64,000 nt of DNA, taken from Actinomycetota bacterium. Its GTDB lineage: Bacteria; Actinomycetota; UBA4738; HRBIN12. Below are positions 1-59,022 of this stretch, piece after piece. Under the pieces are notes generated by a model. That model was not told the origin of the DNA. It did no database searches and worked only from the letters and a program-made list of their open reading frames with translations. The stretch's first letter is position 1. Every line of letters starts with the position of its first letter. The stretch lies in contig JBBECT010000005.1 of the NCBI GenBank assembly GCA_040881665.1, positions 76,138 through 140,137 on the forward strand. Reading direction: 5' to 3'. The translations under genes and the position numbers were made by a program.

Positions 1-849
1 GGGGTTCGCGGCGTCCGCGGATGACACCCCCATGTACGCGGCCGGCGCCAGCGGGTTCCTTGCCGCGCTCTGGATCGTGTCTCGGACCGCGTTGATCTGG
101 ATCGCGAAGCCGATGTTCTCGGCCGCTGCCGCTCCGGCGCCTGCGGTGTTGATGCCGATGACCTGTCCGGCGAGGTCCACGAGCGGTCCGCCCGAGTTAC
201 CGGGATTGATGGCGGCATCCGTTTGCACGATATCGTCGTAGACGCGCTGTGCGTTCTCACACTCTTGGCAGTTGGGATCCTGGGCGGTGACCACGCGGTC
301 GAGTGAGGACACGATGCCGGTCGTGACCGACGGACCTCCTTCGAGACCGAGTGCGTAGCCGATCGCGACGACCTGCTGGCCCAGATCGAGGCTGTCCGAG
401 TCGCCGATCGGCACCGTGGCGAGTTGATCGTCGGTATCGATCTGTAGGACTGCGAGGTCCGCCTCGGCGTCACCTCCGATCACCCGCGCGTCGTAGGTCA
501 CCGGGTCGTCCACGTGGGAGGTGCGGACCGTGAGCTCCTGGGCGCCCTCGACGACGTGGTAGTTGGTGACCGCGATACCGTCCGAGCGCACCACGAACCC
601 GGTGCCGGTCCCCTGCCCCTGGATCCCACGGACGGAGACGTTGACGACGGCCGGGAGCACCTTGCGGACGACGCCGACGATCCGTCCTTCGGTCCCGCGA
701 GTGTCCGGTGCGGGAACGGGGTCGGGGAACTCGAGGCCCTGCCCCTGGCCCTGGTTGGTTGCGGCCGGTTGTTCGACCGTGCACGCGGCGAGCCCCATCA
801 GTAACGCGAGTGGGACGGCCAGCAGCGAACGCCTCAAGGTCGTGTGCAT
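1..849 (-). CDS. Trypsin-like serine protease (S1C/HtrA-like), secreted or lipoprotein; C-terminus lies beyond the window start
   Basis: Minus-strand ORF running off the window edge, so it is absent from the ORF track. Translation begins MHTTLRRSLLAVPLALLMGLAAC (signal/lipobox-like) and contains TNYHVV (His), DLAVLQID (Asp) and GNSGGPL (Ser) catalytic-triad motifs. RBS-like GAGGA upstream. Confidence 0.6.
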   Translation of the reverse strand, partial: MHTTLRRSLLAVPLALLMGLAACTVEQPAATNQGQGQGLEFPDPVPAPDTRGTEGRIVGVVRKVLPAVVNVSVRGIQGQGTGTGFVVRSDGIAVTNYHVVEGAQELTVRTSHVDDPVTYDARVIGGDAEADLAVLQIDTDDQLATVPIGDSDSLDLGQQVVAIGYALGLEGGPSVTTGIVSSLDRVVTAQDPNCQECENAQRVYDDIVQTDAAINPGNSGGPLVDLAGQVIGINTAGAGAAAAENIGFAIQINAVRDTIQSAARNPLAPAAYMGVSSADAANP

Positions 850-1006
850 CGTGCGGATTCCTCTCGTCCGTGAGTCGGGGAGCGACGGACGTTCCCCTCA
901 GGGTACCGTCAACCCCCTATCCGACACCGTGCCGGCCTGGGTTCGCCTCGGATCGGCGAAAGCCTCTCCGACGCGGGAACAGCCCGGTGTGGGAGTCCAG
1001 ATCGAC

Positions 1007-2002
1007 TCAGCCGGTCGATGCGCGGTCCGACGCGGCGCCGGTCTCGTCGACGGACGCGGGACGCGGGAGCAGGCCGAGGCGCTCGATCGCCTCGGTGATC
1101 AGGTGATCGCCCTTGATCGACATCAGGTGCAGACCGGCGATCCCCTCCATCGCACGCAGCTCCTCGCAGAGCTCGAGGGTCATCTCCAAGGCCTCGGCCT
1201 CTTGCCGTTGTTTCGGAACGCCTTCGAGGCGCCGGACGACGTCCTCGGGAACATCGATCCCCGGCACGATGTCCCGCATGTAGGCGGCCGCGCGAGCAGA
1301 GCGAGGGATGTAGACGCCCGCGAGGATCCACGCACGCTCCGTGCAGCCGAGGTCGACGGCCGCACGCATGAACGAACGCATCCGCTGGAGGTTGAAGATG
1401 CACTGCGTCTGGATGAACTCCGCCCCCGCTTCGATCTTCTTCTCCAGCCGCGCGGGGCGGAACTCCACCGGTGGAGCGAACGGATTCTCGACCGCGCCGA
1501 CAAGGAACGTGGGAGCGGAGCTCAGCGGACGCCCGCTGAGGTAGGTGCCTTCGTCTCGCAGGATCCTCGCGATCCTGATCAGGTGCATCGCGTCCAGGTC
1601 GAAGAGGGGTTTGGCCTCGGGGTGGTCGCCGGCGGTGACGTCGTCGCCGGTCATGAGGACGACGTTGCGGATCCCGAGCGCGTGCGCACCGAGCAGGTCG
1701 GCCTGCAGCCCGAGGCGGTTGCGGTCGCGGCAGCCGAACTGAGCGACGGGCTCGATCCCGCGTTCGAGAAGCAAGCGCCCCGCAGCGACCTGCGAGATGT
1801 GCGGGTGCGCGGCGCTGTTGTCGGTGCAGTTGACGGCGTCGACCTTCCCGGCAAGCGGCACAGCCGCCTCGAAGACCGACTCCGGATCGCCGCCGTCGGT
1901 CGTCTGCAACTCGGAGGTGACGGCGAACGCGCCGGACAGGAACACCTCGTGGAGGCGACTCCGGGGCCCTGCCGTCTCGGCGACCTGCGATCCGAGGGTC
2001 AT
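1007..2002 (-). CDS. metF: 5,10-methylenetetrahydrofolate reductase (MetF)
   Basis: Internal ATG (MTLGSQV...) of ORF 1007..2356. About 331 aa with MTHFR-family hallmarks (VNCTDN, FGCRDRNR, LMTGDD, TQCIFN). The upstream 118 aa of the ORF are Arg-rich junk overlapping the neighbouring gene in another frame. Start overlaps the upstream gene's stop (ATGA). Confidence 0.8.
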   Translation of the reverse strand: MTLGSQVAETAGPRSRLHEVFLSGAFAVTSELQTTDGGDPESVFEAAVPLAGKVDAVNCTDNSAAHPHISQVAAGRLLLERGIEPVAQFGCRDRNRLGLQADLLGAHALGIRNVVLMTGDDVTAGDHPEAKPLFDLDAMHLIRIARILRDEGTYLSGRPLSSAPTFLVGAVENPFAPPVEFRPARLEKKIEAGAEFIQTQCIFNLQRMRSFMRAAVDLGCTERAWILAGVYIPRSARAAAYMRDIVPGIDVPEDVVRRLEGVPKQRQEAEALEMTLELCEELRAMEGIAGLHLMSIKGDHLITEAIERLGLLPRPASVDETGAASDRASTG

Positions 2003-2472
2003 GCGGGCCCCTCGGCGTCGGGGTGAGGATGCGCCCACGCAGGCGCCGCTGCGGGGGTCTCCGGCCGCACACGCCATGCTGCCGGGACGAGCTTGTCTCG
2101 CCCGGTCAGGCCGTTCTCCCACGAGGCGGTTTCCTGCAGCCGCCAGTCGACGGGAGGGTTCACGCGATCGAGATGGTCGCGCCAGATCGGGAGCGCGCGA
2201 GCGCCCTCCAAGGCCTGCACCCAGACGCAGGGCCGGTCCGGGAGGACCTCGCACGTCCCGTCTTGGAGGACGCCCCCGCAGGGACCGTTCCGCAGGTTCT
2301 TCGGGCACCGCATCGGGCAGCTCATCCCCGTGGAATGGAGGATGCACTGCCCGCACATGCGGCAGTCGAATGCCTTCTCCTTCGCGACCTTCTCGACGAG
2401 CAGCAACGCCTTGCGGAAGCCCTTCGGCTCCGGCGCGCTCGCCGGGGGTCGTCTGTCGAGTCGCTGGCCCAC
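1999..2472 (-). CDS. Stand-alone MTHFR C-terminal-domain protein (Cys-rich, zinc-ribbon-like; MetV-like MetF partner)
   Basis: 157-aa ORF with a Cys-rich core (CRMCGQCILHSTGMSCPMRCPKNLRNGPCGG) typical of the MTHFR_C family. GTG start. Its stop overlaps the metF start codon by 4 nt. 31-nt gap to the upstream aminomethyltransferase. Confidence 0.6.
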   Translation of the reverse strand: MGQRLDRRPPASAPEPKGFRKALLLVEKVAKEKAFDCRMCGQCILHSTGMSCPMRCPKNLRNGPCGGVLQDGTCEVLPDRPCVWVQALEGARALPIWRDHLDRVNPPVDWRLQETASWENGLTGRDKLVPAAWRVRPETPAAAPAWAHPHPDAEGPA

Positions 2473-2503
2473 CTGCGGGGGCGCCTCCTGCGCCCGTGGC
2501 CGC

Positions 2504-3682
2504 CTAGGACTTCAGGTCGGCGGCCGGAACCTCCTTCTTCTGATCGACGAACGGGATCGCCGCGGTGCTTCCCACGAGCGAGCCGCTCTCGGATTCGATG
2601 TCGATCTTGGTCCCCGGGGTCGAGAGCTCGATCGGCACCCACACGTAGCCGATGTTCTTCTCCAGCTTCGGCGACCAGACGGCATCGGTCATGTACCCGA
2701 CCTCTTTGCCCCCGTTGTGCACCGGCCAGTACTCGCTCATCTCGGCACGGAGCTCGTCACCCTCGATCTCGATCCCGACCAGCTTGCGCTTGACCCCATT
2801 CGTGCGGATCGACTCCAGGGCGCCTTTGCCGATGTAATCCTGCGACTGCTCCTGGACGAGACGCTCCAGGCCCATGACCTCGAACGGGTTGTGCTCCAGG
2901 CGGATGTCCGAGCCGTAGTTGAAGATCCCGGCCTCGATCCGTCGCGCCTCACACGGAGCGATCGGCCGGATGTTGAACTCCTCCCCGGCCTCCATGATCG
3001 TGTTCCACAGGTTCACGCCCTCGTCGTAACCGAGCAGGTTCACCTCGAAGCCCTGCACGGCCGTCCAGCCGGTGCGGCTGATCACGACGGGGATGCCCTT
3101 GATCTCGAATTTCCCGGTCCAGTAGTACTTCAGGTCGTAGATCCCCGGACCCACGAGCTTCTCGAGGGTCTTGGCGGCCTTCGCTCCCTGGACCTGGCAG
3201 GGATAGACGTCCGGCAACGTGACCTCGACATCGAGTCCGGACGTCGCGGCCACGCCCAGCGCGTACAGGCCGGCATCGGAGTCGGCGAGCTGCATCCACC
3301 ACACGTTCTCCTCGGGGTGCAGCAGGACGGGGTCGTTCACGATGCCGCCGTCCGGTGCGGTCACGAGCATGTACTTGCCCTGGTTCACCTGAACGTTGCT
3401 CAGGTCGCGGCACGTGATCATGTCGATCAGCTTGTCGGCGTCCGGTCCACTCACCTGCACGGTTCGCTCCACGGCGACGTCCCACAGGGTCACGTCGTTC
3501 AGCAGGGCCCAGTACTCGGTCACCGGGTCGTCGTAGTAGCCGGGCAGGTACATGTGGTTGTAGATGTCATACGAGGTGCAGCCCGCGGCGCGGGTCGCCT
3601 CGAAGTACGGGGACTTGCGATACCACGGCCCGAAATACAGGGTCGCGCTCTTCTCGAGCATCTCTTGGCGCTCGTTGACCAT
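2504..3682 (-). CDS. GcvT-family aminomethyltransferase, DmdA/LigM-like THF-dependent demethylase (paralog 1)
   Basis: 392-aa ORF with an ATG start and a strong SD (GGGAGGA). Glycine-cleavage T-protein fold motifs (LWDVAVER, NDPVLL, QVQGAKA, GYVWVP). Lies next to metF. Confidence 0.75.
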   Translation of the reverse strand: MVNERQEMLEKSATLYFGPWYRKSPYFEATRAAGCTSYDIYNHMYLPGYYDDPVTEYWALLNDVTLWDVAVERTVQVSGPDADKLIDMITCRDLSNVQVNQGKYMLVTAPDGGIVNDPVLLHPEENVWWMQLADSDAGLYALGVAATSGLDVEVTLPDVYPCQVQGAKAAKTLEKLVGPGIYDLKYYWTGKFEIKGIPVVISRTGWTAVQGFEVNLLGYDEGVNLWNTIMEAGEEFNIRPIAPCEARRIEAGIFNYGSDIRLEHNPFEVMGLERLVQEQSQDYIGKGALESIRTNGVKRKLVGIEIEGDELRAEMSEYWPVHNGGKEVGYMTDAVWSPKLEKNIGYVWVPIELSTPGTKIDIESESGSLVGSTAAIPFVDQKKEVPAADLKS

Positions 3683-3726
3683 CCGGGTCCTCCCTGTTCA
3701 GCTCCGCCGGGCCCGGTGCCCGACCA

Positions 3727-3770
3727 GAACTGAATGATGGTTCAAACAACCGCTCGAACGCAAGTTCAGG
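3727..3770. promoter_or_regulatory. Cluster of GAAC/GTTC inverted half-sites (GAACTGAATGATGGTTC...TCGAAC...AGTTCAG), 45-90 nt upstream of paralog 1
   Basis: Read directly: GAAC-N9-GTTC palindrome at 3727-3743 plus further TGAAC/GTTCA half-sites. The same half-site recurs upstream of the Rieske gene (7058-7243). Confidence 0.3.
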
Positions 3771-3896
3771 TGCCCGATCCCCTGCCCGGCCTAGGGCGCG
3801 GGTTTCCCGTGGGCGCACCCCTCAGCGACGACGGCCCCGGAGATCCGGCGGTTGCCGGTCCCGGGGCCGCGCGACGGCGCCGTCTCCGAGGTGGAA

Positions 3897-5057
3897 CTAG
3901 GAGACGGGGATCTGCTTGCTCGGGTCGACGAACGGCATCTCGACGACCGTGCCGGTGCGGGGGCCCCACTCGGTCTCGACCGAGATCGTGGAGCCGAGCA
4001 CGGACTTGTCGGCGGGCAGCCATCCGTACCCGATGTTCTTCTTCAGTCGCGGCGAGTAGATCGCCGAGGTGATCTTGCCGATCTTCGCCGAGCCCTCGCG
4101 GATGTCCCACTTCACATTGTTCAGCGAAGGGAACGGGTCGCCGTCGAACTCGACGCCGTTGATCTTCTTGCTCACGCCCTTGGCCTTGATGTCCTTGTAG
4201 GCCTTGATCGAGATGCAGGCGTCCTCGGACACGGTGTCGAGGTCGACGAGCCGCTCGAGGCCGAGCTCGAAGGCGTTCTCCTGGTAGGTCATGTCCGCGC
4301 CCCAGTTGAAGATCGCACCTTCGATCCGACGGATGTCGCTGGGTCCGGTCGGCTTGATGTTGTACTTCTCGCCGGCCTTCATGAGCGCTTCGTAGACCTC
4401 GGTGCCCTTGGAACCGTCGGTGAGGTACACCTCGTAGCCCACCTCGGAGGTCCAACCGGTCCGGGTGATCACGACCGGAGCTCCGGCGATCTCGGCGTTC
4501 GTGAACCAGTAGTACTTGATGTCCAGGATCGACTCCCCGACGAGGTCGACCATGAGGTCCTTCGACTTCGGTCCCTGGACCTGCAGGGGCGCGACATCCG
4601 CCTCCTTGATCGTCACATCCAGTTCCGGGTAGGCGTTCTTGAGGCCGCGAGCCCATAGCAGTGTGTCGCTCGAGGCGAGAGCGAACCAGAACGTGTTCTC
4701 GTCCATCCGCGTCAGCACCGGGTCGTTGATGATGCCACCGTCGCTGTCGCACACGAGCACGTACTTCGCCTGTCCGACCTGACACTTCCTGAGATCGCGC
4801 GGGGTCATCAGCTGGGCGAAGGTGAACCCGTCGGGGCCGCTGATCTCCAGGCACCGTTCCACCGAGACGTCCCACAGCGTGACGTCGTTCAGGAGGGTGT
4901 CGAACTCCTTCTCGAAGTCGTCGAAGCGGATCGGGAAGTACATGTGGTTGTAGACGGTGAAGCCCTTCGGTCCGTACTTCTGTGTCGCTTCGTAGTAGGG
5001 GGTGCGTCGGTTGCGTGCGCCCCGCTGGACCAGGCTCATGTCGAACGGCTCGGCCAT
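3897..5057 (-). CDS. GcvT-family aminomethyltransferase, DmdA/LigM-like THF-dependent demethylase (paralog 2)
   Basis: Internal ATG (MAEPFDMSLVQ...) of ORF 3897..5204, with a perfect SD (GGAGGAACAG) 6 nt upstream. Alignable to paralog 1 along its whole length (VYNHMY, LWDV.VER, NDPVL, QVQGPK, RTGWT, NIGYGW). Confidence 0.75.
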   Translation of the reverse strand: MAEPFDMSLVQRGARNRRTPYYEATQKYGPKGFTVYNHMYFPIRFDDFEKEFDTLLNDVTLWDVSVERCLEISGPDGFTFAQLMTPRDLRKCQVGQAKYVLVCDSDGGIINDPVLTRMDENTFWFALASSDTLLWARGLKNAYPELDVTIKEADVAPLQVQGPKSKDLMVDLVGESILDIKYYWFTNAEIAGAPVVITRTGWTSEVGYEVYLTDGSKGTEVYEALMKAGEKYNIKPTGPSDIRRIEGAIFNWGADMTYQENAFELGLERLVDLDTVSEDACISIKAYKDIKAKGVSKKINGVEFDGDPFPSLNNVKWDIREGSAKIGKITSAIYSPRLKKNIGYGWLPADKSVLGSTISVETEWGPRTGTVVEMPFVDPSKQIPVS

Positions 5058-5066
5058 CTGTTCCTC

Positions 5067-5100
5067 CTGAGGTGATCGGCGGTCTGAGGTGATCGGCGGT
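5067..5100 (-). repeat. Tandem 17-nt direct repeat (2 x CTGAGGTGATCGGCGGT) in the 5' leader of paralog 2, abutting its SD
   Basis: Read directly. On the mRNA strand it reads ACCGCCGAUCACCUCAG twice, then GGAGGAACAG AUG. GAUCACCUC matches the anti-SD 3' tail of 16S rRNA. Confidence 0.5.
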
Positions 5101-5222
5101 CGGATCCGCCGCGAGGCGCTCCCTGAGAGCCGTTCCCCCGGTTCGGAGGGCATCTTCGCCCCGGTGCGCGGTCCGGACAAGGCCCGCCCTTGACCTGGGG
5201 TCAACGGGCCGAGAGCCGGGCT

Positions 5223-5259
5223 GACGAACGCCGGCGCCCGTGCGACGCCGGCGTTCGTC
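5223..5259 (-). terminator. Perfect 14-bp-stem hairpin (GACGAACGCCGGCG-N9-CGCCGGCGTTCGTC), 34 nt downstream of the membrane-protein gene
   Basis: Read directly. GC-rich stem with no U-tract, as is common in high-GC genomes. It may separate the Rieske/membrane transcript from the downstream aminomethyltransferase unit. Confidence 0.35.
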
Positions 5260-5292
5260 GTGCGCGGCAGCCGGTCTGGGACCGGCGTGGGA

Positions 5293-5733
5293 CTACTCGG
5301 TGATGTCGCGGCCGTGGGCGGTCAGTGCCCAGATCACGATCACGTCGATCGCGATGACCACGATCGCCCAGAACGGTTCGGGCGACACAGGGAGGAACAC
5401 GAAGTTCGCGATCGCACTGATCGTCGCCAGGATCACCGCCAGGGTTCGCGCCCAGACGGCGCCGGAGAACAATCCGAAGCCCGCCAGCAGGATGATCACC
5501 CCCGCGAGCAGGTGGATCCATCCCCACGTGGTGGCGTCGAACTCGAAGGTGTAGTTCTGCCCGACCACGAAGAACTCGTCCTCGATGATCCCCGCGAGCC
5601 CGATCACGGCCTGGAAGGCGCCGATCAAGATCAGCATGAATGCGGCGAACATCGTCATACCGACCGCGAAACTGCTCCGCTGCTTAGCCACTCCGACCCC
5701 CTTCGCATAGCGCTGGGTCAGTGGATAGCGCAC
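5293..5733 (-). CDS. Conserved actinobacterial small integral membrane protein (4 predicted TM helices), function unknown
   Basis: 146 aa with a GTG start. Highly hydrophobic, with conserved-looking motifs (WGWIHLLAGVIILLAGFGLFSGAVWAR, IAIDVIVIWALTAHG). Confidence 0.55.
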   Translation of the reverse strand: MRYPLTQRYAKGVGVAKQRSSFAVGMTMFAAFMLILIGAFQAVIGLAGIIEDEFFVVGQNYTFEFDATTWGWIHLLAGVIILLAGFGLFSGAVWARTLAVILATISAIANFVFLPVSPEPFWAIVVIAIDVIVIWALTAHGRDITE

Positions 5734-5798
5734 CTGAGGGGGGAAGTCGAGCCCCCTGCGAGTCCGAGCGGAGGAGGCCGAGATCTAGCGCCTGGGAC

Positions 5799-7004
5799 CT
5801 AGGAGGCTTCGTCGACGGCGTGGCGGTAGTTGAGGTCGGGAGCTCTGGTGATCCGTCCGTCCTTGTACCCCTGGGCGATCATGAACATGAACGCGTGGAC
5901 CTCGTCCTCTTCCTCGGCGAACGGGCCCTGCCGGTACCCCTCCGAGGACAGCCCGCGGAAGACCGACTCGCAGGCGTCGAAGTCCTCCTTGTTGGTCACG
6001 TCCCAGAACTCCGAGGCGTAGGAGGTGTCGAAGTCGGGCCGCTCCTTGGACTCCGGCGCCCACAGCCAGGCGCATTCGATCGCCGTCTTCCCGGGCGAGA
6101 CCGGGTCCAACCGGTGGGTCATGATGTAGTCGGGGTGCAGGCTGATCAACAGGTTCGGGAACACCCCGTAGTAGTAGACCTCGCGCTTCTGCTTGTCCCT
6201 GAGGCCGCGGAAGGCAACGCCCTTCGAGGCCCCGGTCATGCTCATCGTGTCGGCGAAGTCCATCAGCTCCATCGAACCGCCGATCACGGCTCCCGTGTGT
6301 TGGTAGTACTCCCCCGAGTCGACCGGGGTCACCTTGCACAGCGCCGGGTGGATGCTCGGGCAGTGGTAGCACTCCTGGTAGTTCTCGGCGATCGTTTTCC
6401 AGTTCGCGTCGGCCGTGTAGTCGTGCGCGTCCCCTGTGAAGGCCCGCTCGGGCTCCCACGGGGCGACGAGCTCGGTGAGGTTGCCGACGTACTCGGAGAA
6501 CTCGGGAGCCCCTCCGTCGGCGTTGACGAACACCCATCCGAGCCACTCGTGGGTGCGTGCGGGGATCAACGGGTACTCGGTCTTGTCGAAACCGGGGATC
6601 TTGCCGAAACGGGGCGCGCCCTTCAGCTCACCCTCGAGCCCGTAGACCCACGCGTGATAGGGACACTTGATCCCGTTCATGTTGCGCATCTCGCCGCACG
6701 CCATCAGCTCGTGGCCGCGGTGGCGACACGTATTGAAGAACCCGCGGAGACCGCCGTCCTGGCCACGGGCCAGCAGGATGCCCTCCCGCCCGATCCGGAC
6801 CGCCTTCTGGTCGCCCGCCTCTGCGAGGTCGTCGGACCGCCCGACGCAGACCCAGGAGCCCTCGAAGAAGTGCTCTCGTTCCCACTCGAGGACGTCACCG
6901 GAGACGTAGGCCTCCGCCGGGAGGGTCAGCGCTTTGGCCAGATCGGTCGCCAGCACCGGATCCAGGAGGGTTGGGTCGATCGGGGCCGCCGAAGCGTCGG
7001 TCAT
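5799..7004 (-). CDS. Rieske [2Fe-2S] non-heme iron oxygenase, alpha-subunit type (GbcA/CntA/Stc2/KshA-like demethylase or hydroxylase family)
   Basis: Internal ATG (MTDASAAP...) with an AGGAGG SD. Rieske motif CRHRGH...CPYHAW. Mononuclear-iron motif ENYQECYHCPSIHP. No beta subunit or reductase adjacent. Confidence 0.8.
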   Translation of the reverse strand: MTDASAAPIDPTLLDPVLATDLAKALTLPAEAYVSGDVLEWEREHFFEGSWVCVGRSDDLAEAGDQKAVRIGREGILLARGQDGGLRGFFNTCRHRGHELMACGEMRNMNGIKCPYHAWVYGLEGELKGAPRFGKIPGFDKTEYPLIPARTHEWLGWVFVNADGGAPEFSEYVGNLTELVAPWEPERAFTGDAHDYTADANWKTIAENYQECYHCPSIHPALCKVTPVDSGEYYQHTGAVIGGSMELMDFADTMSMTGASKGVAFRGLRDKQKREVYYYGVFPNLLISLHPDYIMTHRLDPVSPGKTAIECAWLWAPESKERPDFDTSYASEFWDVTNKEDFDACESVFRGLSSEGYRQGPFAEEEDEVHAFMFMIAQGYKDGRITRAPDLNYRHAVDEAS

Positions 7005-7057
7005 GTCCGTGCCTCCTGGGATCGTCTCGGGGGCCTGCACGCCCCGTGGTCCTGTTT

Positions 7058-7082
7058 GAACAGTCAGTCAAAGACTGGTTCG
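7058..7082. promoter_or_regulatory. Imperfect palindrome GAACAGTC-N7-GACTGGTTC, 54-78 nt upstream of the Rieske ATG
   Basis: Read directly. Shares TGAAC/GTTCGA half-sites with the 7179-7243 repeats and the 3727-3770 sites. Confidence 0.3.
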
Positions 7083-7178
7083 AATCGAGATGCTAGCACG
7101 GGCGACGAACACCTCCCGACAGGCCTCTTGACCCGAAGTATGACCATCGGTTCCCCGATCTGCATCCGGGACCCCAGC

Positions 7179-7243
7179 CTGAACCGGGTTCAGATGCCGG
7201 TCGACGAGCCCACCCGCACCGAGTGGGGCTGAACCGGGTTCAG
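7179..7243. promoter_or_regulatory. Two identical copies of the 15-bp near-palindrome CTGAACCGGGTTCAG (7179-7193 and 7229-7243), 50 bp centre-to-centre; candidate operator pair
   Basis: Read directly, in the 283-bp gap between the amidohydrolase stop and the Rieske start. The flanking GC context is also repeated (GCCTGAACCGGGTTCAG / GGCTGAACCGGGTTCAG). Confidence 0.35.
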
Positions 7244-7287
7244 CGGATCCGGGCGCTCCGCGGCACCCCCGATCTCCCTGCTCCGTC

Positions 7288-8952
7288 CTACCGGAACGAC
7301 GGTGCCTCGTACACGACGTCGCCTTCGACGAGCGTGAGCTCGACGGAGGCCTCCGAGATGTGCTCGTCCCCCTCCTCGAACAGATCGCGGTCCAGCACGG
7401 CCAGGTCGGCGAGCTTCCCCTCGGTGATCGTGCCGGTCTGCTCGTCGAGATGGTTCACGTACGCGGTGCCGAGCGTGAACGCCTCGACCGCCGCGGCCAG
7501 GGAGATCCGTTCCTCGGGCAGGAACGGCTCGGACTCGAGCGGATCGTCCGAGCCGTACGGGTAGTCGGCCGGCTGCATCCGGTTGACGGCGACGTGGATC
7601 TCCTCGAGCGGATCCGGGCTCGAGACCGACCAGTCGCTGCCGAAGGCCAGTCGAGCGCCCGAACGCAGCAGGCTCCCGAAGGGGTACTGCCACGACGCGC
7701 GGGGTTGGCCGAGGAACGGGATCGTCAGCTGACTCATCTGCGGTTCGTACGCGGCCCACAGCGGCTGGCCGTTCGCGACGGCACCGAGCGCGGCGAACCG
7801 AGGGATGTCGTTTGGGTGCACGACCTGGATGTGGGAGATGTGATGGCGGAGGTCCGCCGAGCCGGCGACATCGGAGGCCGCCTCGATCGCGTCGAGGCAT
7901 TCGCGGACGGCCCGGTCGCCGATCGCGTGGAAGTGTGCCTGGAAGCCGGCCTCCGCCAGCGCCCGGACGTAGCCCTTCAGCCGTTCGGGGTCTACGAAGC
8001 TCTTGCCCCGCTCGCTGGTTGGGGTGCCATCGCTGCCGAGGTAGGGGTCGAGCATCCCGGCCGTGAAGTTCTCGCACACGCCGTCCTGCATGATCTTCAC
8101 GCTCGTGGGCGCGAACCGACCCACCGAGCCCGTCGTTCGACGCTCGATCAGACCGTCGATCTGTTCGATGCCCAACGAGCGCTCCCACCACAGCGCACCG
8201 ACGACCCGCGCGGTCAGCAGGCCCCGCTCGGCTGCGGTGCAGTGAGCGGTGAACGAGTCGTACGGCCCTCCGACGATCGCGTCCTGCCAGGCGGTGATAC
8301 CGAGCGAGTGCAGATGGGCCTGCGCGGTGAGGAGCCCCTGGAGCCACTGCTCGTCGGTGATCGCCGGAAGGAGCTTCCCTACGAGGTCGGTCGCACCTTC
8401 CTGGAGCGTGCCGACCGGCTCGCCGGTGCCATCGCGCTCGATCCGGCCGTCCTCCGGATCGGGGGTGTCGCGCGTCACACCGGCCAGCTCGAGCGCGCGA
8501 GTGTTCACCCACGCCCCGTGTCCGTCCCGGTTCGGGAGATACACGGGGCGGTCCGGCACGATCGCGTCGAGCTCCTCCTTCGTCGGGATCCCGCGGGGGA
8601 ACACGTCCATCGACCATCCGCCCCCCCGGATCCACTCTTCGTCCGGATGCGCGGCGGCATAGCGCGCGATGATCTCCCGGTACTCGGCGATCGAATGCGC
8701 CTCGGACAGATCGCAATTGAGCATCTCCACACCGCTCGGCGCGGGATGGACGTGGGCATCCTGGAAACCCGGCAGCAGGGACCGGCCGCGAAGGTCGTGG
8801 ACCTGGGTCGTGGCGTCGACGTGGGTTCGGATCTCGTCGTCGGTGCCGACCGCGACGATCCGTCCCCCGGAGATCGCGACGGCCTCGGCGCGCGGTCGCC
8901 CCGGGTCGACGGTCCAGATCGCCCCGGACACGAACGCGAGATCTGCAGGCAT
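7288..8952 (-). CDS. Amidohydrolase-3 family metal-dependent hydrolase (YtcJ-like)
   Basis: 554 aa with an ATG start. Amidohydrolase motifs (HVHP, HAIGD, FGSDW). Confidence 0.8.
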   Translation of the reverse strand: MPADLAFVSGAIWTVDPGRPRAEAVAISGGRIVAVGTDDEIRTHVDATTQVHDLRGRSLLPGFQDAHVHPAPSGVEMLNCDLSEAHSIAEYREIIARYAAAHPDEEWIRGGGWSMDVFPRGIPTKEELDAIVPDRPVYLPNRDGHGAWVNTRALELAGVTRDTPDPEDGRIERDGTGEPVGTLQEGATDLVGKLLPAITDEQWLQGLLTAQAHLHSLGITAWQDAIVGGPYDSFTAHCTAAERGLLTARVVGALWWERSLGIEQIDGLIERRTTGSVGRFAPTSVKIMQDGVCENFTAGMLDPYLGSDGTPTSERGKSFVDPERLKGYVRALAEAGFQAHFHAIGDRAVRECLDAIEAASDVAGSADLRHHISHIQVVHPNDIPRFAALGAVANGQPLWAAYEPQMSQLTIPFLGQPRASWQYPFGSLLRSGARLAFGSDWSVSSPDPLEEIHVAVNRMQPADYPYGSDDPLESEPFLPEERISLAAAVEAFTLGTAYVNHLDEQTGTITEGKLADLAVLDRDLFEEGDEHISEASVELTLVEGDVVYEAPSFR

Positions 8953-8994
8953 CGCGAGAGGATACCGCCGCCGCGCTTCCTCCGGCGCGTCTCC

Positions 8995-10590
8995 TCACGC
9001 GAGGGCGACGAGATCGAGGAGATCGTCGCTCCAGTGATCGATCGTTCCGTCGGGCATGAGCAGCACACGTGACGGAGCAAGCTCTCGGACGAACTCGACA
9101 TCGTGGCTCACCAGGAGCATCGCTCCCGGCCAGGTCGACAGGGCGGCCCCCACGGCTGCGCGGGAGGGCGGATCGAGGTTGTTCGTCGGCTCGTCGAGCA
9201 GCACGAGGTTCGCGCGACCGGCGACCAGTTGGGCGAGCGCGAGCTTCGTCTTCTCGCCACCAGAGAGGGTGCCGGCGTCCTGGAAGGCAACCGCGCCCGT
9301 CAGTCCGAACATCCCCAAAAGCGCGCGCAGGTCCTGATCGCTCGCCTCCGCTCCCCTCCTGAGATGTGCGAAGACCGACTCGCCCTCGTGGATCCCCTCG
9401 TGTTCCTGGGCGTAGTAGCCGAACGTTACGCCGGGCCCGAGCGAGAAAGAACCGGCGTCGGGATCGCTCTCCCCGGCCAGGATCCGCAGCAGGGTGGTCT
9501 TGCCCGCTCCGTTGAGCCCGAGCACGAGCAGGCGCTCCCCGCGTCCGAGGTCGAACGAGACGTCCCTGAACACCGGGGGCCCTCCGTAGCCCTTCGTTAG
9601 CTCGCGGACGTCGAGGACCCGCTTGCCGCTGTGCGGAGGTGGTGGGAACCGGTACGCGACCGACCGCTCACGGCGCGGACCCTGGACCTGTCGCTCCCGG
9701 AGCTTGGCGACGCGGGTGTCGAGGGTCTTGGCCTTGCGCGCGCGCTTCGCGGTCTGGCCGCGCATCGAGTCGGCGAGCCGCGAGAGTCGCTCCACCTCGG
9801 CGGCCTGGCGCGAGGCCAGCTTCTCGAGTCGCAGCTCGTCGGCCGCGCGGGCGGTCCGGTACTGCGAGTAGGTCCCCTTGTAGGTCACGACCCCGTCGTG
9901 GTCCAGGTGCAGCACGCGCGTGATCGATCGGTCGAGCACCGCGATGTCGTGACTCACGACCAGCAGGCCGCCGCCGTAGGTCGCCAGGAATCCCATGAGC
10001 CACTGCTTCGCGTCCACGTCGAGGTGGTTCGTCGGCTCGTCGAGCAGCAGCAGGTCGCTGCCGCCGTAGAGGATCTTCGCGAGCTCGAGGCGCCGGCGTT
10101 CTCCACCGGAGAGCGCGTCGACCGGCAATCCGAGGCGATCCTGCGGCAACCCGAGTCCCGTCGCGATCCGCGTGGCCTCCGCTTCGGCCGCGTACCCTCC
10201 GAGAGTCGCGAAGCGTTCCTCGAGCTTGGCGAAGCGCGCGACCGCCTCGTCGGTGTGGTCCTCCTCCAAGGCGAGCCGCTGTTTCTCGACGCGGGTCGCG
10301 AGCTCGTCGATCCCCCGAGCCGCCAGGATGTGCGTGAGCCCGGTCGCACGATCGTCGGCGCGATGGTGGCGAGGGTCCTGGCGCAGGTAGCCGAGCGCTC
10401 CGCGGATGCGGACCGTTCCTCGGGCCGGGGGGTCCTTGCCCGCCAGCACACGGAGTGTGCTCGTCTTCCCGGCGCCGTTGCGGCCGACGACACCGACCTT
10501 CTCCCCCGCGGTAACGGTGAGGTCGAGCCCCGACACGACGGGGCGCCCGGCCACCACCACGGTGAGGTCACGGACCTCGAGAGTGCTCAT
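8995..10590 (-). CDS. ABC-F family ATPase (two tandem ABC domains, no TMD; Uup/EttA-like)
   Basis: 531 aa with two Walker A motifs (GRNGAGKTS, GLNGAGKTT), two LSGGE signatures and a charged linker between them. Confidence 0.85.
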   Translation of the reverse strand: MSTLEVRDLTVVVAGRPVVSGLDLTVTAGEKVGVVGRNGAGKTSTLRVLAGKDPPARGTVRIRGALGYLRQDPRHHRADDRATGLTHILAARGIDELATRVEKQRLALEEDHTDEAVARFAKLEERFATLGGYAAEAEATRIATGLGLPQDRLGLPVDALSGGERRRLELAKILYGGSDLLLLDEPTNHLDVDAKQWLMGFLATYGGGLLVVSHDIAVLDRSITRVLHLDHDGVVTYKGTYSQYRTARAADELRLEKLASRQAAEVERLSRLADSMRGQTAKRARKAKTLDTRVAKLRERQVQGPRRERSVAYRFPPPPHSGKRVLDVRELTKGYGGPPVFRDVSFDLGRGERLLVLGLNGAGKTTLLRILAGESDPDAGSFSLGPGVTFGYYAQEHEGIHEGESVFAHLRRGAEASDQDLRALLGMFGLTGAVAFQDAGTLSGGEKTKLALAQLVAGRANLVLLDEPTNNLDPPSRAAVGAALSTWPGAMLLVSHDVEFVRELAPSRVLLMPDGTIDHWSDDLLDLVALA

Positions 10591-10684
10591 ATCTCCACGC
10601 TAACCGGTGCGTCGCCGGGGAACGCGGAAGGGGCGGCCCGGAGGCCGCCCCTTCGCTCGTGCTCAGCTCGAGATGCCGCTCAGA

Positions 10685-11164
10685 TCAAAGGGGGCATCCG
10701 AGGTTGTTCGCGGCGTCCAGCTCCGCGGCGAGCTCCAGGTACGCGGCACGGTTCTCGGTCGCGAGCGTGTCGCGGATCCACGTCTGGAGGTTGCCCGGCT
10801 CGTCGAACCTCCGGTACGGGTACCCCACGCCCTCGTGCGCAGCGTTGAGATACGCGGCCACGACGGCCCGGAACAGGACCTTGGCAGCACCCGAGAGACC
10901 GGTGCCGCCCTTGAAGCTCAGAGCTTGCTCGAACGTCTTGCCGTTCAGGTCGGACAGCGACGCAGGGATGTCCCAGTTCTGGTTCCCCAGCTTGGACCCG
11001 GGCGTGTACTCCTCCCAGTTGTCCGTGTGGTTCTTCCAATAACCGGGCGTGCAGCCCTCTTCGCCGATGTTCACGGCGCCTGCCGACGGCATCAGACCGA
11101 CGAACAGACCGGCCGCGAGCGCCACCGAAACCAGCGCTCCGACGATCCGACGATGCTTGGGCAT
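10685..11164 (-). CDS. Small secreted protein of unknown function (signal peptide, 2 Cys)
   Basis: 159 aa, ATG with an AGGAGG SD. N-terminal signal peptide (MPKHRRIVGALVSVALAAGLFVGLMPSAGA). No recognisable family. Confidence 0.5.
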   Translation of the reverse strand: MPKHRRIVGALVSVALAAGLFVGLMPSAGAVNIGEEGCTPGYWKNHTDNWEEYTPGSKLGNQNWDIPASLSDLNGKTFEQALSFKGGTGLSGAAKVLFRAVVAAYLNAAHEGVGYPYRRFDEPGNLQTWIRDTLATENRAAYLELAAELDAANNLGCPL

Positions 11165-11350
11165 ACGGAACCTCCTGTAGCTCGGGGAACGATCCGACCT
11201 GCGAGATGCTACGTAGCCCCGGGTGATGCCACAACGGGCCCCGTCCCTAGGTCGAAGGACCTAGACACGGAGATGCCGTTCCCTCGCACGCGTATGCGGC
11301 AGGTGGATGTTCCGATATTTCTCGAGCGGAACGCGCTCCGAGTGGAGAGC

Positions 11351-11659
11351 TCAGGCAGGATCACTGCTGAAGAGGTGGAGCAGGTCCATCTCCACCCGGG
11401 TCGGGGGTTCGGCGAGTAGCGGTCCCACGGCGTCGTTGAACGAGGCGAACTCCGGATCGCTGTTGACGGCGTCTGCCGCGGGGCGGTCGGTGAAGACCCC
11501 GATCCCGCGGACGGTGCCGCTCCCCTGGTCCCCGAGGACGAGTACGGACTCGAGTGCCTCGTGCGTGCTGAGGAACTCGGCCGTGAAGACCGAGTAGAGG
11601 TCGGCAACTTCTCGGTAGTGGCCCGGCTTGGCGTGCAGCGTGAACTCGGCGCAGTACAT
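11351..11659 (-). CDS. Small cytoplasmic protein, possibly ABM/Dabb-like (weak assignment)
   Basis: About 102 aa from the internal ATG (MYCAEFTLHAKPGHY...). A hairpin (CTAGGTC-GAAG-GACCTAG) lies downstream. Confidence 0.35.
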   Translation of the reverse strand: MYCAEFTLHAKPGHYREVADLYSVFTAEFLSTHEALESVLVLGDQGSGTVRGIGVFTDRPAADAVNSDPEFASFNDAVGPLLAEPPTRVEMDLLHLFSSDPA

Positions 11660-11734
11660 GTGTTCGGCTCCTTCGGGTCGCGGGTCGATCTTCGTTCCCG
11701 CACACATCGACCCGAAGAGCCGGACCCTGAAGTA

Positions 11735-11822
11735 AGTGGTGTCGGAGGGGGGATTTGAACCCCCACCCTCTTGCGAGGACTAGGCCCTCAACCTAGCGCG
11801 TCTACCAAATTCCGCCACTCCG
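11735..11822 (-). tRNA. tRNA-Leu (anticodon GAG), 3' CCA encoded
   Basis: Cloverleaf read by eye: acceptor GUCGGAG/CUCCGAC, anticodon arm CUAGG-UUGAGGG-CCUAG, long variable arm, T-arm GGGGG-UUCAAAU-CCCCC. Confidence 0.85.
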
Positions 11823-11882
11823 ACGTGCAGCGATGGGGAGTCTAGCAGCGGGGTGCGGACGGCCTGGAGGTCGGATGCGGTC

Positions 11883-12113
11883 CTAGCGGGGGGTCCACTG
11901 CCAGGACAGGTAGAAGGTGCAGAGCCCGAACACGATCGCGGAGATCACCGTCAAGCGGTCGAGGCGCTTCTCGAGCGACGTGCCCCCCGACAGGGTCGAG
12001 GTGCCTCCGAACATGTCCGACAGACCGCTCCCCTTCCCGGAGTGCAGCAGGACGAACACGATCAAGAAGAGAGCGGTGATGACGTCGATCACGACGACGA
12101 TGGCGGTCAGCAT
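11883..12113 (-). CDS. secG: Preprotein translocase subunit SecG
   Basis: 76-aa product from an internal ATG (MLTAIVVVIDVITALFLIVFVLLHSGKGSGLSDMFGG...), a typical SecG sequence. The N-terminal ORF extension is Pro/Arg junk. Confidence 0.8.
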   Translation of the reverse strand: MLTAIVVVIDVITALFLIVFVLLHSGKGSGLSDMFGGTSTLSGGTSLEKRLDRLTVISAIVFGLCTFYLSWQWTPR

Positions 12114-31586: not shown

Positions 31587-33674
31587 TCAGGCCGAGGCGG
31601 CCGTGGTCGTGCTGGCGGGGCGCCGGTCATCCAGGAGCGCGCACAGGGCCTCGACGACCTCTGGATCGAACTGGCTTCCGGCACAGCGACGCAGCTCGTC
31701 GAGAGCCTCCTTGCGCGTGCGCGGCTTCCCGTACGCGCGATCCGGGGACAGCATCGCGTGGTAGGCGTCGCACACCGCCACGATGCGGGCGCCGAGTGGG
31801 ATCGAGTCGGCGGCGAGCCCGTCCGGGTACCCGCTACCGTCCCACCGCTCGTGGTGGTGACGGATCAGCTCGGCGACCTGATGAAGCGCCGGAGCCGCGT
31901 CCAGGATCCGCTCCCCGATCTCACTGTGCCGAATCATGAATCGCCACTCCTCATCCGTGAGGGGGCCGTTCTTCGACAGGATCTCCTCGGGGATCGCAAC
32001 CTTCCCGATGTCGTGCAGCTCCGCGGCACGACGCACACGAGCGAGCTCGTAGTCCTCGGCGCCGAACCGGCGGGCGATCGCCTCCGCGAGGTCTGCGACC
32101 TCGTCGCGGTGCTCCCCCAGCTGCGGATGACGTTCGAGCAGCGCGCGCACGAGCACGTCGCGACTCTGGGTTTCCGCGGTGAGCCGGCGGCCGTGCTTCT
32201 CCGCATACATCCGCTTGTCCGCCTGGCGCAGCGCATCCTCCGCGTCGGCCGCATCGTCGGGGATCCGGACGATGCCGTGGGAACAGCCGATCTCGAATCC
32301 GTCACCTTGCTCGGAGAGGGCGAGCATGGCCGCGCCCAGCAGATCGTCCAGATCCTCGCCGGTCCGTTCGGTGAGGATGCAGAACTCGTCGCCCCCGAGC
32401 CGGTACGCACAGCCGCGATCGCTCATCACCTCGGTGAGCTTGGCCGAGAGCCTGATCAGCAGGGCATCTCCCGCCGGGTGACCGAACGTGTCGTTGTAGT
32501 GCTTGAAGCCGTCGAGGTCGAACATCCCGAGCGCGAACGGCGCTCCCGTTTCGACCATCTCGTCCAGGTCGGCCATGAGCTTGCGACGGTTCCCGATCCC
32601 CGTGAGGCTGTCGCTGGTGACGGCGTCGGCCAGTTCCCGGTTCACCGCACGGTACGACCGCGCTCCCGCGAACAACAGCACGAGGCCGACCGCGACCAGC
32701 GACGCCGTTCCCGGACCGACGCCGGCGAACAGGCCCAGCGGCTCGGCGGGCTCGGCGGCCACGACCCAGTGGTTCTCGTTCCCAACTCCACCGATCACGG
32801 GTTCGTAGGCGACACGGACACCGGCGGCGTCGCTCAGGCCTCGCGTTCCGGCGGAACGGAGCCAGTCGAAGCGCTCGTCGGTCGGATCACCGAGGGCGAA
32901 CCCCGAGAGGTCGTCGTTGCCGCTGCCCGCGTCCGATCCGTCCACGATCGTCGCTCCCGATCCCTGACGAACAGCCGCGTCGATCACCACCGAGGATGTC
33001 GGCGCCTCCACGACCCGGATCTCTATCCCATCGGGAACGACCGCCCAGGCTTCGATCCGGAACGTCTCGACCGGCATCTCGTATTGCACGATCCCTCGTG
33101 TCACGCCGTCGATGCTCGGCACCGGCGTCGCGAACGAGATCACCCACTGCCCCGTCGACGGGGACACGAAGGGTGCCGATTGATACACGTCGCCGGTCTC
33201 CATCGAGAACGCCGGGATGAAGAAGGGAGCTTCGCGCTGGTCCCGCGAGAGTCCGGTGACCGGCGCGCGCAGCAGCCGATCGGCCCGCGCGTTCTCACCG
33301 CCTTCGCGGTCGACGAAGCTCGCGGTCAGGATGTCCGGATACAACCGCTGCAGGTAGATCAGGGCGCTGTTGATGTCGTCCATCGTGCGTCCACCGCCGG
33401 AGATACGACGCAGACGGGAACCGCCCATCTCGTAGAAGCGTTGGAACGCGGGGTTGTCGGCGCTCAGCAGTGCGATCGCTCGCGCGCGGTCGAACTGGTT
33501 CGCCAACACCTGCGACTCGTGCCGGGCGGCGGAGACGAGCGTGTCGTCGAGCTCGCTCGCGGCTGCGGCACGCTGCTGCATGGCCAAGCCCACCCCCGCC
33601 GCGAGCATCACGGCGGCGAGCAGCATCAGGCCGAGCGCGGTACCGCGACCGCGGCTGAGGTTGGTCCGCCCCAT
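31587..33674 (-). CDS. Membrane sensor protein with a periplasmic (Cache-like) domain, GGDEF diguanylate cyclase and HD-GYP phosphodiesterase domains
   Basis: 695 aa. N-terminal TM, a periplasmic region of about 280 aa, a second TM, a GGDEF motif (RLGGDEFCIL), then an HD-GYP domain (HDIGK ... HHERWDGSGYP). Confidence 0.75.
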   Translation of the reverse strand: MGRTNLSRGRGTALGLMLLAAVMLAAGVGLAMQQRAAAASELDDTLVSAARHESQVLANQFDRARAIALLSADNPAFQRFYEMGGSRLRRISGGGRTMDDINSALIYLQRLYPDILTASFVDREGGENARADRLLRAPVTGLSRDQREAPFFIPAFSMETGDVYQSAPFVSPSTGQWVISFATPVPSIDGVTRGIVQYEMPVETFRIEAWAVVPDGIEIRVVEAPTSSVVIDAAVRQGSGATIVDGSDAGSGNDDLSGFALGDPTDERFDWLRSAGTRGLSDAAGVRVAYEPVIGGVGNENHWVVAAEPAEPLGLFAGVGPGTASLVAVGLVLLFAGARSYRAVNRELADAVTSDSLTGIGNRRKLMADLDEMVETGAPFALGMFDLDGFKHYNDTFGHPAGDALLIRLSAKLTEVMSDRGCAYRLGGDEFCILTERTGEDLDDLLGAAMLALSEQGDGFEIGCSHGIVRIPDDAADAEDALRQADKRMYAEKHGRRLTAETQSRDVLVRALLERHPQLGEHRDEVADLAEAIARRFGAEDYELARVRRAAELHDIGKVAIPEEILSKNGPLTDEEWRFMIRHSEIGERILDAAPALHQVAELIRHHHERWDGSGYPDGLAADSIPLGARIVAVCDAYHAMLSPDRAYGKPRTRKEALDELRRCAGSQFDPEVVEALCALLDDRRPASTTTAASA

Positions 33675-33829
33675 GCAGGCTGAATCGGCTGCTCGGGGGG
33701 GGGCTTGAGGCCTGCCGACGGCCTTGCTCGGAACTGCGTAGCCCGTTGTGACCGGTCGGCCTCACCCCATACCGCGACGATGGATCGCGGGGTGCCTACG
33801 AGCACGACCGAGGGGCGCCCGACCCTCCG

Positions 33830-59016: not shown

Positions 59017-59022
59017 CGAGAC

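Follow-up and report, generated by a model that had tools for sequence, protein, structure and literature searches.

Sequence analysis of a 64,000-nucleotide stretch of an Actinomycetota genome (contig JBBECT010000005.1, positions 76,138 to 140,137; called the window below, G+C content 65-70%) led to two paralogous proteins, GcvT1 and GcvT2, which resemble the dimethylsulfoniopropionate (DMSP) demethylase DmdA and very probably are tetrahydrofolate (THF) methyltransferases of the DmdA type rather than components of glycine cleavage. In the window the pair is accompanied by genes for a Rieske oxygenase, a small DUF7144 membrane protein and a two-subunit methylenetetrahydrofolate reductase (MTHFR) of the MetV-MetF type, here called MetVF. 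Across related species this six-gene composite is a minority configuration, and the stable unit is the GcvT pair alone. The reading that we prefer, and to which we give roughly even chances, is that the locus serves the folate-dependent demethylation of onium compounds, with the Rieske enzyme and MetVF as accessories; the assignment of the substrates to the quaternary ammonium (betaine-type) class is tentative and stands a shade short of even.

The six genes lie on the minus strand between positions 1007 and 7040, as found from the list of open reading frames (ORFs) and a filter for third-position G+C. Each has a strong Pfam domain match, which bears out the gene and domain assignments made in an earlier note on this DNA. 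The first gene encodes the Rieske oxygenase alpha subunit (5799-7004, 401 amino acids, PF00355 and PF00848); its ORF reaches a GTG at 7040, and the ATG at 7004 is favoured since it is preceded by AGGAGG and gives the 401 amino acids of NCBI entry MEX0753938.1. It is followed by the DUF7144 protein (5293-5691, ORF to 5733, 132 amino acids, PF23636, E = 1.8e-41). GcvT1 (386 amino acids) occupies 3897-5057 within an ORF that spans 3897-5204, with a probable start at ATG 5057 (MAEPF) preceded by GGAGG, and its paralog GcvT2 (392 amino acids) occupies 2504-3682; both combine PF01571 and PF08669. The last two genes encode the MetV-like small Cys-rich subunit (1999-2472, 157 amino acids, PF12225/DUF5981, 90 bits) and the MetF-like reductase (1007-2002, 331 amino acids, PF02219, 99 bits), and share a 4-nt ATGA overlap through which MetF is predicted to be translationally coupled to MetV. 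The same six-gene order was found in two metagenome-assembled genomes (MAGs) at NCBI and in three independent assemblies of read runs, and the locus is therefore no assembly artefact.

GcvT1 and GcvT2 are 45% identical to each other. Among the NCBIfam models, the best match of both is DmdA (NF009133), with 340.2 bits for GcvT1 and 305.5 bits for GcvT2, below the equivalog cutoff of 410. The models for the glycine-cleavage T protein score lower and again below their cutoffs (NF001567, 167.5 and 153 bits against 300; TIGR00528, 145 and 127 bits against 235.85). The top PDB match of both proteins is the DmdA of P. ubique (3tfh), which aligns end to end (246 bits for GcvT1). Alignments showed that the motifs YNH..P, WDV.VER and NDPV are present in both paralogs and in the two verified DmdAs, those of P. 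ubique and P. inhibens, whereas a bona fide T protein, encoded in a gcvP-gcvT-gcvH cluster of Paenarthrobacter, carries FDL.SHMG and DDL where GcvT1 and GcvT2 have WDV.VER and NDP. GcvT2 has in addition a private, near-invariant motif in the active-site region, RTGWTA[VI][QP]GFE[VI]N. A neighbour-joining tree built from 73 full-length members placed GcvT1 and GcvT2 in one 10-member clade (bootstrap 73) and the P. ubique and P. inhibens DmdAs in a separate one (bootstrap 60), with both clades far from GcvT. Neighbouring gcvH or gcvP genes are found neither in the window nor in 80 related loci. By these comparisons the pair forms a sister clade of DmdA and belongs neither to the glycine-cleavage T proteins nor to the DmdA orthologs; the DmdA-like character proposed in the earlier note is thus upheld, and the paralogs lie outside the T-protein clades. 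To our knowledge no other protein in the DmdA branch of the GcvT superfamily has been characterised, and DmdA itself is regarded as a marker of marine DMSP metabolism.

The earlier note had also listed methoxylated aromatics among the candidate substrates. A GcvT-family demethylase next to metF reproduces the ligM-metF architecture of Sphingobium SYK-6, and the soil habitat would suit aryl methyl-ether O-demethylation of lignin-derived methoxy-aromatics by enzymes of the LigM, DesA or dicamba Dmt type. The LigM and DesA models give, however, only 36-60 bits against cutoffs of 580 and 800, and those enzymes comprise ca. 460 amino acids, compared to 386 and 392 here. Furthermore, the Rieske enzyme is of group V and not of the VanA type (see below), and genes for aromatic ring cleavage are absent from the vicinity. 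We regard this substrate class as highly improbable.

The distribution of the pair was followed at several depths. At least 403 species-representative genomes encode a relative, at least 8000 related proteins were found in metagenomes, and an exhaustive HMMER search against 1.84 billion cluster representatives gave only 425 matches at E <= 1e-30. The host lineage is an uncultured Actinomycetota group found mainly in soil and groundwater; the GcvT1 homologs among the matches listed are at least 71% identical and all derive from MAGs or metagenomes. The window proteins were mapped onto 80 species loci (numbered with the prefix L, as are the loci of other lineages), of which 53 cover the whole canonical frame from the amidohydrolase to HtrA. 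Across the 80 species GcvT1 is 75-92% identical (median 77%), and GcvT2 follows directly downstream in 66 of the 74 informative loci. The neighbouring ABC-F translation factor (8995-10590) has a median identity of 70%; that GcvT1 is better conserved than this neighbour is unusual for a presumed catabolic enzyme. The region itself is syntenic among the species, with SecG, ABC-F and the amidohydrolase on one side and HtrA and the Pup-proteasome genes on the other, and the pair also occurs together in at least four other genomic contexts, for example in convergent orientation (L038) or beside a gene for an S-adenosylmethionine-dependent methyltransferase near division genes (L052).

The accessory genes behave differently from the pair. 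Among the 53 full-frame loci, the Rieske gene and MetVF are both present in 6, the Rieske gene alone in 19, MetVF alone in 11 and neither in 17, so that the Rieske gene occurs in 25 species and MetVF in 17, with all four combinations represented. When the constant genes were concatenated for a tree, MetVF proved to be nearly restricted to a single clade, to which the window belongs, whereas the Rieske gene is scattered over all clades and close sister species differ in its presence, which indicates many independent losses. In one locus (L032 10001-13800) the order is GcvT1-MetV-MetF-GcvT2, with MetVF between the paralogs. The DUF7144 gene was found at this position in none of the 80 other species loci and is a lineage-specific insertion, a recent passenger seen only in the species of the window; its candidacy as a conserved, transporter-like component was dropped. 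The conservation of the locus as a unit, on which the earlier note had made its proposal depend, is accordingly not what is observed, and its description of the membrane protein as conserved does not apply. Taken by themselves, the synteny of the whole region, the free combination of Rieske and MetVF genes and the clear case of DUF7144 would fit a simpler account, namely that there is no module beyond the pair and that a permissive spot of the core genome took up the Rieske, DUF7144 and MetVF genes as unrelated insertions, which are adjacent by ancestry only. The two positions of MetVF, after GcvT2 or between the paralogs, already speak against this, and further evidence comes from relatives and from the upstream regions.

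With a PF02219 catalytic subunit and an adjacent PF12225 Cys-rich subunit, the window MetF conforms to the two-subunit MetV-MetF type by sequence and is not a canonical MetF: the canonical model TIGR00676 gives 57.1 bits against a cutoff of 293.7, and its best PDB matches are eukaryotic MTHFRs only, at 46 bits. The protein is 44-48% identical to the MetV-paired MetF of plasmid-borne clusters in Paracoccus methylovorus and Azoarcus sp. KH32C (L100 2914-11126 and L101 160-12047). These clusters encode a MttB-family methyltransferase, a corrinoid protein and DUF1638, and further a methyl-THF:corrinoid methyltransferase (MtgA-like), a RamA-like activase, a GlxA-type regulator, ProVWX for the transport of glycine betaine, and PurU; they are quaternary-amine demethylation loci that feed methyl-THF. 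The MetV-MetF assignment thus agrees with the earlier note in that this type accompanies methyl-THF-forming demethylation systems elsewhere. A folate context is also found around relatives in other organisms. In Lichenihabitans a homolog with 43% identity lies between MTHFR and purU-folD, with ABC transporters nearby, and in Haloarcula the homolog lies between dihydrofolate reductase and MTHFR. This recurrence of MTHFR next to homologs in Alphaproteobacteria and haloarchaea is likewise not expected if the neighbours of the pair were unrelated insertions. The closest cultured homologs are unnamed proteins annotated as 'glycine cleavage T C-terminal barrel', and true DmdA is 34-36% identical. 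An older and still open parallel is provided by the aminomethyltransferases of unknown function that are located near betaine transporters in SAR11 (PMC3160333).

The best PDB matches of the Rieske protein are Stc2 and CntA, at ca. 151 bits, and the GbcA model (NF058607) gives 158.9 bits, well below its cutoff of 670. The protein thus groups with GbcA, Stc2 and CntA, as had been proposed, and is not assigned to GbcA itself. The Rieske motif CXH-X17-CXXH is present (CRHRGH...CPYH, residues 105-129), and within the segment YQECYHCPSIH (ECYHCPSIH being residues 223-231) lie the bridging Glu, two His residues that bind the iron (His-X4-His) and a Cys-X-X-Cys pair, in which the two Cys correspond to C206/C209 of CntA and C202/C205 of Stc2. 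The bridging Glu and the Cys-X-X-Cys pair mark group V, the Rieske oxygenases acting on quaternary ammonium compounds (PMC10952381), and these residues place the window protein in group V. Within this group, an aromatic residue at position 203 of CntA characterizes clade Va (CntA, choline monooxygenase and OxyBAC), which oxidises a non-methyl carbon, whereas Asn at this position characterizes clade Vb, the N-demethylases GbcA/BmoA and Stc2 (PMC7948474). Multiple sequence alignment revealed Tyr at the position of CntA Y203 in the window protein and in all 120 orthologs, and Asn in Stc2. We assign the protein to Va only tentatively, because the criterion is a single residue and because Stc2, not CntA, gives the better alignment over the C-terminal half. 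Because of the Va-type Tyr, and since known Va enzymes catalyze hydroxylation or C-N cleavage at a non-methyl carbon, the Rieske enzyme probably is not a simple N-demethylase. In agreement with the earlier note, neither a reductase for the oxygenase, such as a GbcB/CntB-type partner, nor a regulator is encoded anywhere within the window. Locus L002 carries, just upstream of ABC-F (4618-4950), a gene for a 110-amino acid Rieske-type ferredoxin (PF00355/PF13806) that has no counterpart in the window; it is a possible electron-transfer partner of the oxygenase.

The upstream regions provide a link between the Rieske gene and GcvT1. Between the stop codon of the amidohydrolase gene and the start of the Rieske gene there are two copies of a perfect 15-nt palindrome, CTGAACCGGGTTCAG, the distal one at 7229-7243 and the second, 50 nt away, at 7179-7193; both are candidate operators. 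A related site, TGACC-N3-GGTCA (5191-5203), is found just upstream of the -35-like TTG element of GcvT1, as a candidate operator or activator site, and opens the conserved block that precedes this gene. The general form TGAMC-N3-GKTCA has three matches in the 64 kb, against 0.2 expected, a number reached in 1 of 100 shuffles, and all three are upstream of either GcvT1 (one) or the Rieske gene (two). For the comparison between species, the 250 nt upstream of each gene were scanned for the palindrome, with one mismatch allowed. The motif precedes GcvT1 in 73 of 79 loci, other genomic contexts included, and the Rieske gene in 24 of 32 (form TGACC-N3-GGTC), compared to 10 of 80 for GcvT2 and only 0-3% for control genes (ABC-F 1/48, amidohydrolase 0/57, MetV 0/23, HtrA 2/60). 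It accompanies GcvT1 into other contexts (L031, L036, L052 and L060), and in L031 and L036, which represent a second genomic frame, the Rieske gene again bears the motif and is located 2-3 kb upstream of GcvT1.

The occurrence of the palindrome before both genes and its near absence from the controls argue for a common regulator, and we consider it fairly likely that the two genes are members of the same regulon. The same observations are difficult to reconcile with chance insertion at a permissive site: the motif stands before the Rieske gene and GcvT1 and not before the flanking genes, and the linkage of the two recurs in a different genomic frame. The account in which nothing beyond the pair forms a module is improbable in our view. 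The palindrome was also used in a search for further regulon members, and the sole other recurrent match was within the 3' part of the gene for the ARC/Mpa proteasomal ATPase. Many related genomes have this match, immediately ahead of the gene for the Pup ligase, for example at L001 18245-18257, L006 18293-18305 and L083 15763-15775; it probably reflects conserved coding sequence or coincidence and no regulatory function.

The spacing of the genes is not that of a single operon. The gaps amount to 247 nt before the Rieske gene, ca. 107 nt between it and the DUF7144 gene, 235 nt between DUF7144 and GcvT1, 214 nt between the paralogs and 31 nt between GcvT2 and MetV. Directly after the DUF7144 gene there is a G+C-rich hairpin of 16 bp without a U tract (5223-5259, minus strand); its region of 81 nt folds with -56.5 kcal/mol (z = -6.5; none of 200 shuffles folds equally well), and it is likely the terminator of a Rieske-DUF7144 unit. 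Alignment of upstream regions from ca. 80 species revealed separate conserved blocks resembling -35 and -10 elements ahead of GcvT1 and ahead of GcvT2. Because of these gaps, the hairpin and the promoter-like blocks, the genes likely form at least three transcription units, [Rieske-DUF7144], [GcvT1] and [GcvT2-MetV-MetF], where the earlier note had assumed one minus-strand unit. No riboswitch or leader RNA was detected in the long gaps: Rfam gave only a tRNA in positions 1-12000, even at E <= 1, and the upstream alignments contain only the promoter-like blocks, the palindrome and the ribosome-binding site. Scans with sigma-70 and intrinsic-terminator consensus sequences (no promoter, one terminator at chance level) are uninformative in DNA of 68% G+C.

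A second lineage of the GcvT1/GcvT2 clade (represented by P0242, 55% identical to GcvT1), hereafter the sister clade, was found in MAGs of Gemmatimonadota and Acidobacteriota. Its gene is always part of a four-gene cluster, together with a Tdm-like GcvT gene and two genes for flavin adenine dinucleotide (FAD) proteins of the amine-oxidase/CrtI superfamily, the DmdA-like gene being the fourth, and the genomic surroundings of the cluster differ in all five cases (L095 2849-10167, L097 4498-10143, L098 4451-10152, L102 5488-11200 and L103 4307-11224). Related to this is locus L042 (6971-12403), where two further genes accompany the pair, one for a third, Tdm-like GcvT and one for a flavoprotein as in the Gemmatimonadota-type cluster. 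The L042 contig is binned as Candidatus Polarisedimenticolia (Acidobacteriota), and its GcvT1 and GcvT2 are of the actinobacterial type (78% and 62% identical), which reflects either horizontal transfer or a binning error. The proposal that the sister-clade flavoproteins are LSD1-like amine demethylases was weakened on inspection; their best family matches, CrtO and CrtI, reach ca. 290 bits where the cutoff is 1000, and in the PDB they are closest to phytoene desaturase.

The pairing with FAD oxidoreductases in L042 and in the sister clade raises the possibility that GcvT1 and GcvT2 capture formaldehyde, or an iminium species, that an oxidative N-demethylase sets free, be it the Rieske enzyme or an oxidase whose gene lies elsewhere, and form 5,10-methylene-THF. 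The Tdm model is the second-best NCBIfam match of both proteins (179 and 175 bits), and the Rieske gene adjoins GcvT1 and has the palindrome in common with it. The Tdm match covers, however, only the C-terminal GcvT-like part and is far below the cutoff of 1100; membership in Tdm would moreover require the N-terminal DUF1989 catalytic domain. The pair occurs without a Rieske gene in 28 of 53 species, and the sister clade has a Tdm-like GcvT (290 bits to Tdm) beside the DmdA-like one, which suggests that the two have different jobs. In addition, the DmdA-type NDPV replaces the DD/ED motif of the members that handle aminomethyl groups or formaldehyde, and a local MetVF would be needed only if the product is 5-methyl-THF. 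We therefore hold formaldehyde capture to be a poor candidate for the function of the pair.

In the preferred reading, folate-dependent onium demethylation, GcvT1 and GcvT2 would demethylate an onium donor and place the methyl group on N5 of THF, yielding 5-methyl-THF. Where present, MetVF would operate in the oxidative direction and convert 5-methyl-THF to 5,10-methylene-THF for energy or C1 supply, and species without MetVF presumably rely on an MTHFR encoded elsewhere. The Rieske enzyme would be an optional, separately transcribed accessory, probably co-regulated with GcvT1, which oxidises a related trimethylammonium compound at a non-methyl carbon, like choline monooxygenase and CntA, and in this way most likely widens or feeds the pathway; as a feeder it might convert choline to betaine aldehyde or release trimethylamine by C-N cleavage. 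The earlier note had envisaged stepwise demethylation by the Rieske enzyme and the two demethylases together. The many species that have the pair without the Rieske gene and the Va-type Tyr make this doubtful, and the Rieske reaction probably is not one step of a linear demethylation series.

Several points weigh against the preferred reading. The GcvT1/GcvT2 clade is without a characterised member, and in the literature searched we found no such member, no described pathway with this gene combination (the earlier note had not recognised one either) and no THF-dependent betaine methyltransferase of the GcvT fold. No transporter or binding protein that would name a substrate was found in any of the contexts. 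Rieske and MetVF genes show no positive association, since 6 species have both and ca. 8 would be expected if they were independent. The palindromes on the Rieske side of the window are of the TGAAC..GTTCA variant and not TGACC..GGTCA, for which reason a shared regulator is put forward here as a proposal. The sister-clade flavoproteins are closest to CrtI/CrtO-type enzymes and are not proven amine oxidases. We know of no precedent for an enzyme of the GcvT fold that passes a methyl group directly from a quaternary amine to THF; the known routes of quaternary-amine demethylation use a thiolate, a corrinoid or oxygenases. Finally, the homologs closest among cultured organisms, encoded on plasmids of the roseobacters Phaeobacter inhibens and Loktanella, are 50% identical to GcvT1 and 44% to GcvT2 and belong to a mobile cassette (L087 8320-13060, L088 8325-13124 and L090 8320-13072) of a Lrp/AsnC regulator, a DmdA-like aminomethyltransferase, OsmC, an enoyl-CoA hydratase and an acyl-CoA synthetase, flanked by recombinases or insertion sequence elements. 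The hydratase and the synthetase recall dmdD and dmdB and would suggest a sulfonium or thioether acid as the substrate. The cassette parallels dmdC-dmdD-dmdB-dmdA, is yet distinct from it, and appears uncharacterised.

These roseobacter homologs lead to sulfonium demethylation, in which GcvT1 and GcvT2 would be terrestrial equivalents of DmdA acting on DMSP, S-methylmethionine or trimethylsulfonium, with the Rieske enzyme loosely related. DmdA is indeed the closest characterised enzyme, and both paralogs keep a Trp (W171) that was called DMSP-specific in a study of DmdA evolution. This residue was rejected as a marker because the verified DmdA of P. inhibens has Tyr at the same site. Both proteins are below the DmdA cutoff and in a clade apart from the two verified DmdAs, and the window is devoid of dmdB, dmdC and dmdD, which in P. 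inhibens are arranged as dmdC-dmdD-dmdB-dmdA. With 305 bits, the CoA ligase of the plasmid cassette falls short of the DmdB cutoff of 822 and is no ortholog of DmdB, and the Rieske enzyme, which is probably co-regulated, and the relatives of MetVF both point to quaternary amines. A sulfonium donor is thus less likely than a quaternary ammonium donor, and the sulfonium account as a whole is unlikely.

A more specific proposal within folate-dependent onium demethylation is that GcvT1 and GcvT2 are the first enzymes of the GcvT/DmdA fold to pass an N-methyl group directly to THF, without corrinoid, thiol or O2. This is a speculative and rather doubtful proposal; as donors one would expect quaternary ammonium compounds and possibly protonated tertiary ones, for example glycine betaine or trimethylamine released by the Va-type Rieske enzyme. 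If true, several hundred uncultured Actinomycetota species would harbour a widespread but unrecognised soil sink for betaines and methylamines, and Gemmatimonadota and Acidobacteriota would have related systems. The family might moreover include the gene for the orphan trimethylsulfonium-THF methyltransferase (EC 2.1.1.19), presumably still without an assigned sequence. The clade merits attention, being repeatedly linked to methyl-THF metabolism and quaternary-amine enzymes and under stronger constraint than a neighbouring translation factor. With a betaine or methylamine substrate, a cofactor-free, O2-independent demethylation route would be added to the soil C1 and N cycles, and caution would be required in taking 'dmdA-like' matches in terrestrial metagenomes as evidence of DMSP demethylation. 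With a sulfonium substrate, chemistry of the DMSP and S-methylmethionine type would be extended to soils.

The rest of the window is of a housekeeping nature and encodes an HtrA-like protease, the amidohydrolase, ABC-F, Opp, tpi-pgk-gap, uvrABC, polA, rpsA and coaE. The amidohydrolase (7288-8952) was considered as a member of the module and set aside; it is constant in the syntenic frame but missing from all other contexts of the pair, is never preceded by the palindrome in the 57 loci counted, and lies 42 nt downstream of ABC-F. Between uvrA and uvrB there is a gene for a Cache-GGDEF-HD (HD-GYP-like) signalling protein (31587-33761, minus strand). Two tRNA-Leu genes (anticodons GAG and CAA), at 11737-11824 (minus strand) and 58933-59017 (plus strand), are the sole Rfam and ARAGORN matches in the window.

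Both the combination of a GcvT-family demethylase with a linked MTHFR, as in the DmdA and LigM systems, and the group V Rieske enzymes are already known. What is new is an uncharacterised clade apart from DmdA, very abundant in soil, with an obligate-looking paralog pair, a conserved operator-like site in common with a group V Rieske gene, and the modular gain and loss of the Rieske and MetVF genes. Similar to the group V enzymes CntA, choline monooxygenase, OxyBAC, GbcA/BmoA and Stc2, the window Rieske protein possesses the Rieske motif, the 2-His iron motif, the bridging Glu and the Cys-X-X-Cys pair; it differs in being ca. 30-35% identical to any characterised member, in having no adjacent reductase and in its link to DmdA-like genes, which is undescribed for the known members. 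In SYK-6, LigM and DesA occur with MetF (and LigH), and marine DmdA occurs with MetF; 5-methyl-THF is made and oxidised by the linked MTHFR. The same logic of demethylase plus MTHFR applies to the window, and relatives of the pair lie near MTHFR, folD and purU. LigM and DesA are, however, only remotely similar to GcvT1 and GcvT2, and the MTHFR of the window is a two-gene MetV-MetF that is present in about one third of the related species.

Like Tdm, dimethylglycine oxidase and sarcosine oxidase, which function in the catabolism of methylated amines, GcvT1 and GcvT2 have the THF-binding GcvT fold. In those enzymes an oxidising module is fused to the GcvT domain or acts as its partner, and the domain captures formaldehyde as 5,10-methylene-THF, whereas GcvT1 and GcvT2 are stand-alone proteins with DmdA-type signatures. 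With DmdA they have in common the fold, the length, the domain pair, the sequence motifs including the GxE folate motif, 33-36% identity and, presumably, the chemistry of redox-neutral methyl transfer to N5 of THF. Unlike DmdA, they score below the family cutoff, form a separate clade as an obligate-looking paralog pair in a soil actinobacterial lineage, and have no linked dmdBCD; the private motif of GcvT2 is a further difference. The corrinoid-dependent MttB superfamily (MtgB type) also provides methyl-THF from betaines and is clustered with MetV-MetF proteins 44-48% identical to those of the window. Neither an MttB homolog nor a corrinoid protein, MtgA or RamA is encoded in the window, and if the substrate class is the same, its catalyst would be an unrelated, cofactor-free enzyme of the GcvT fold.

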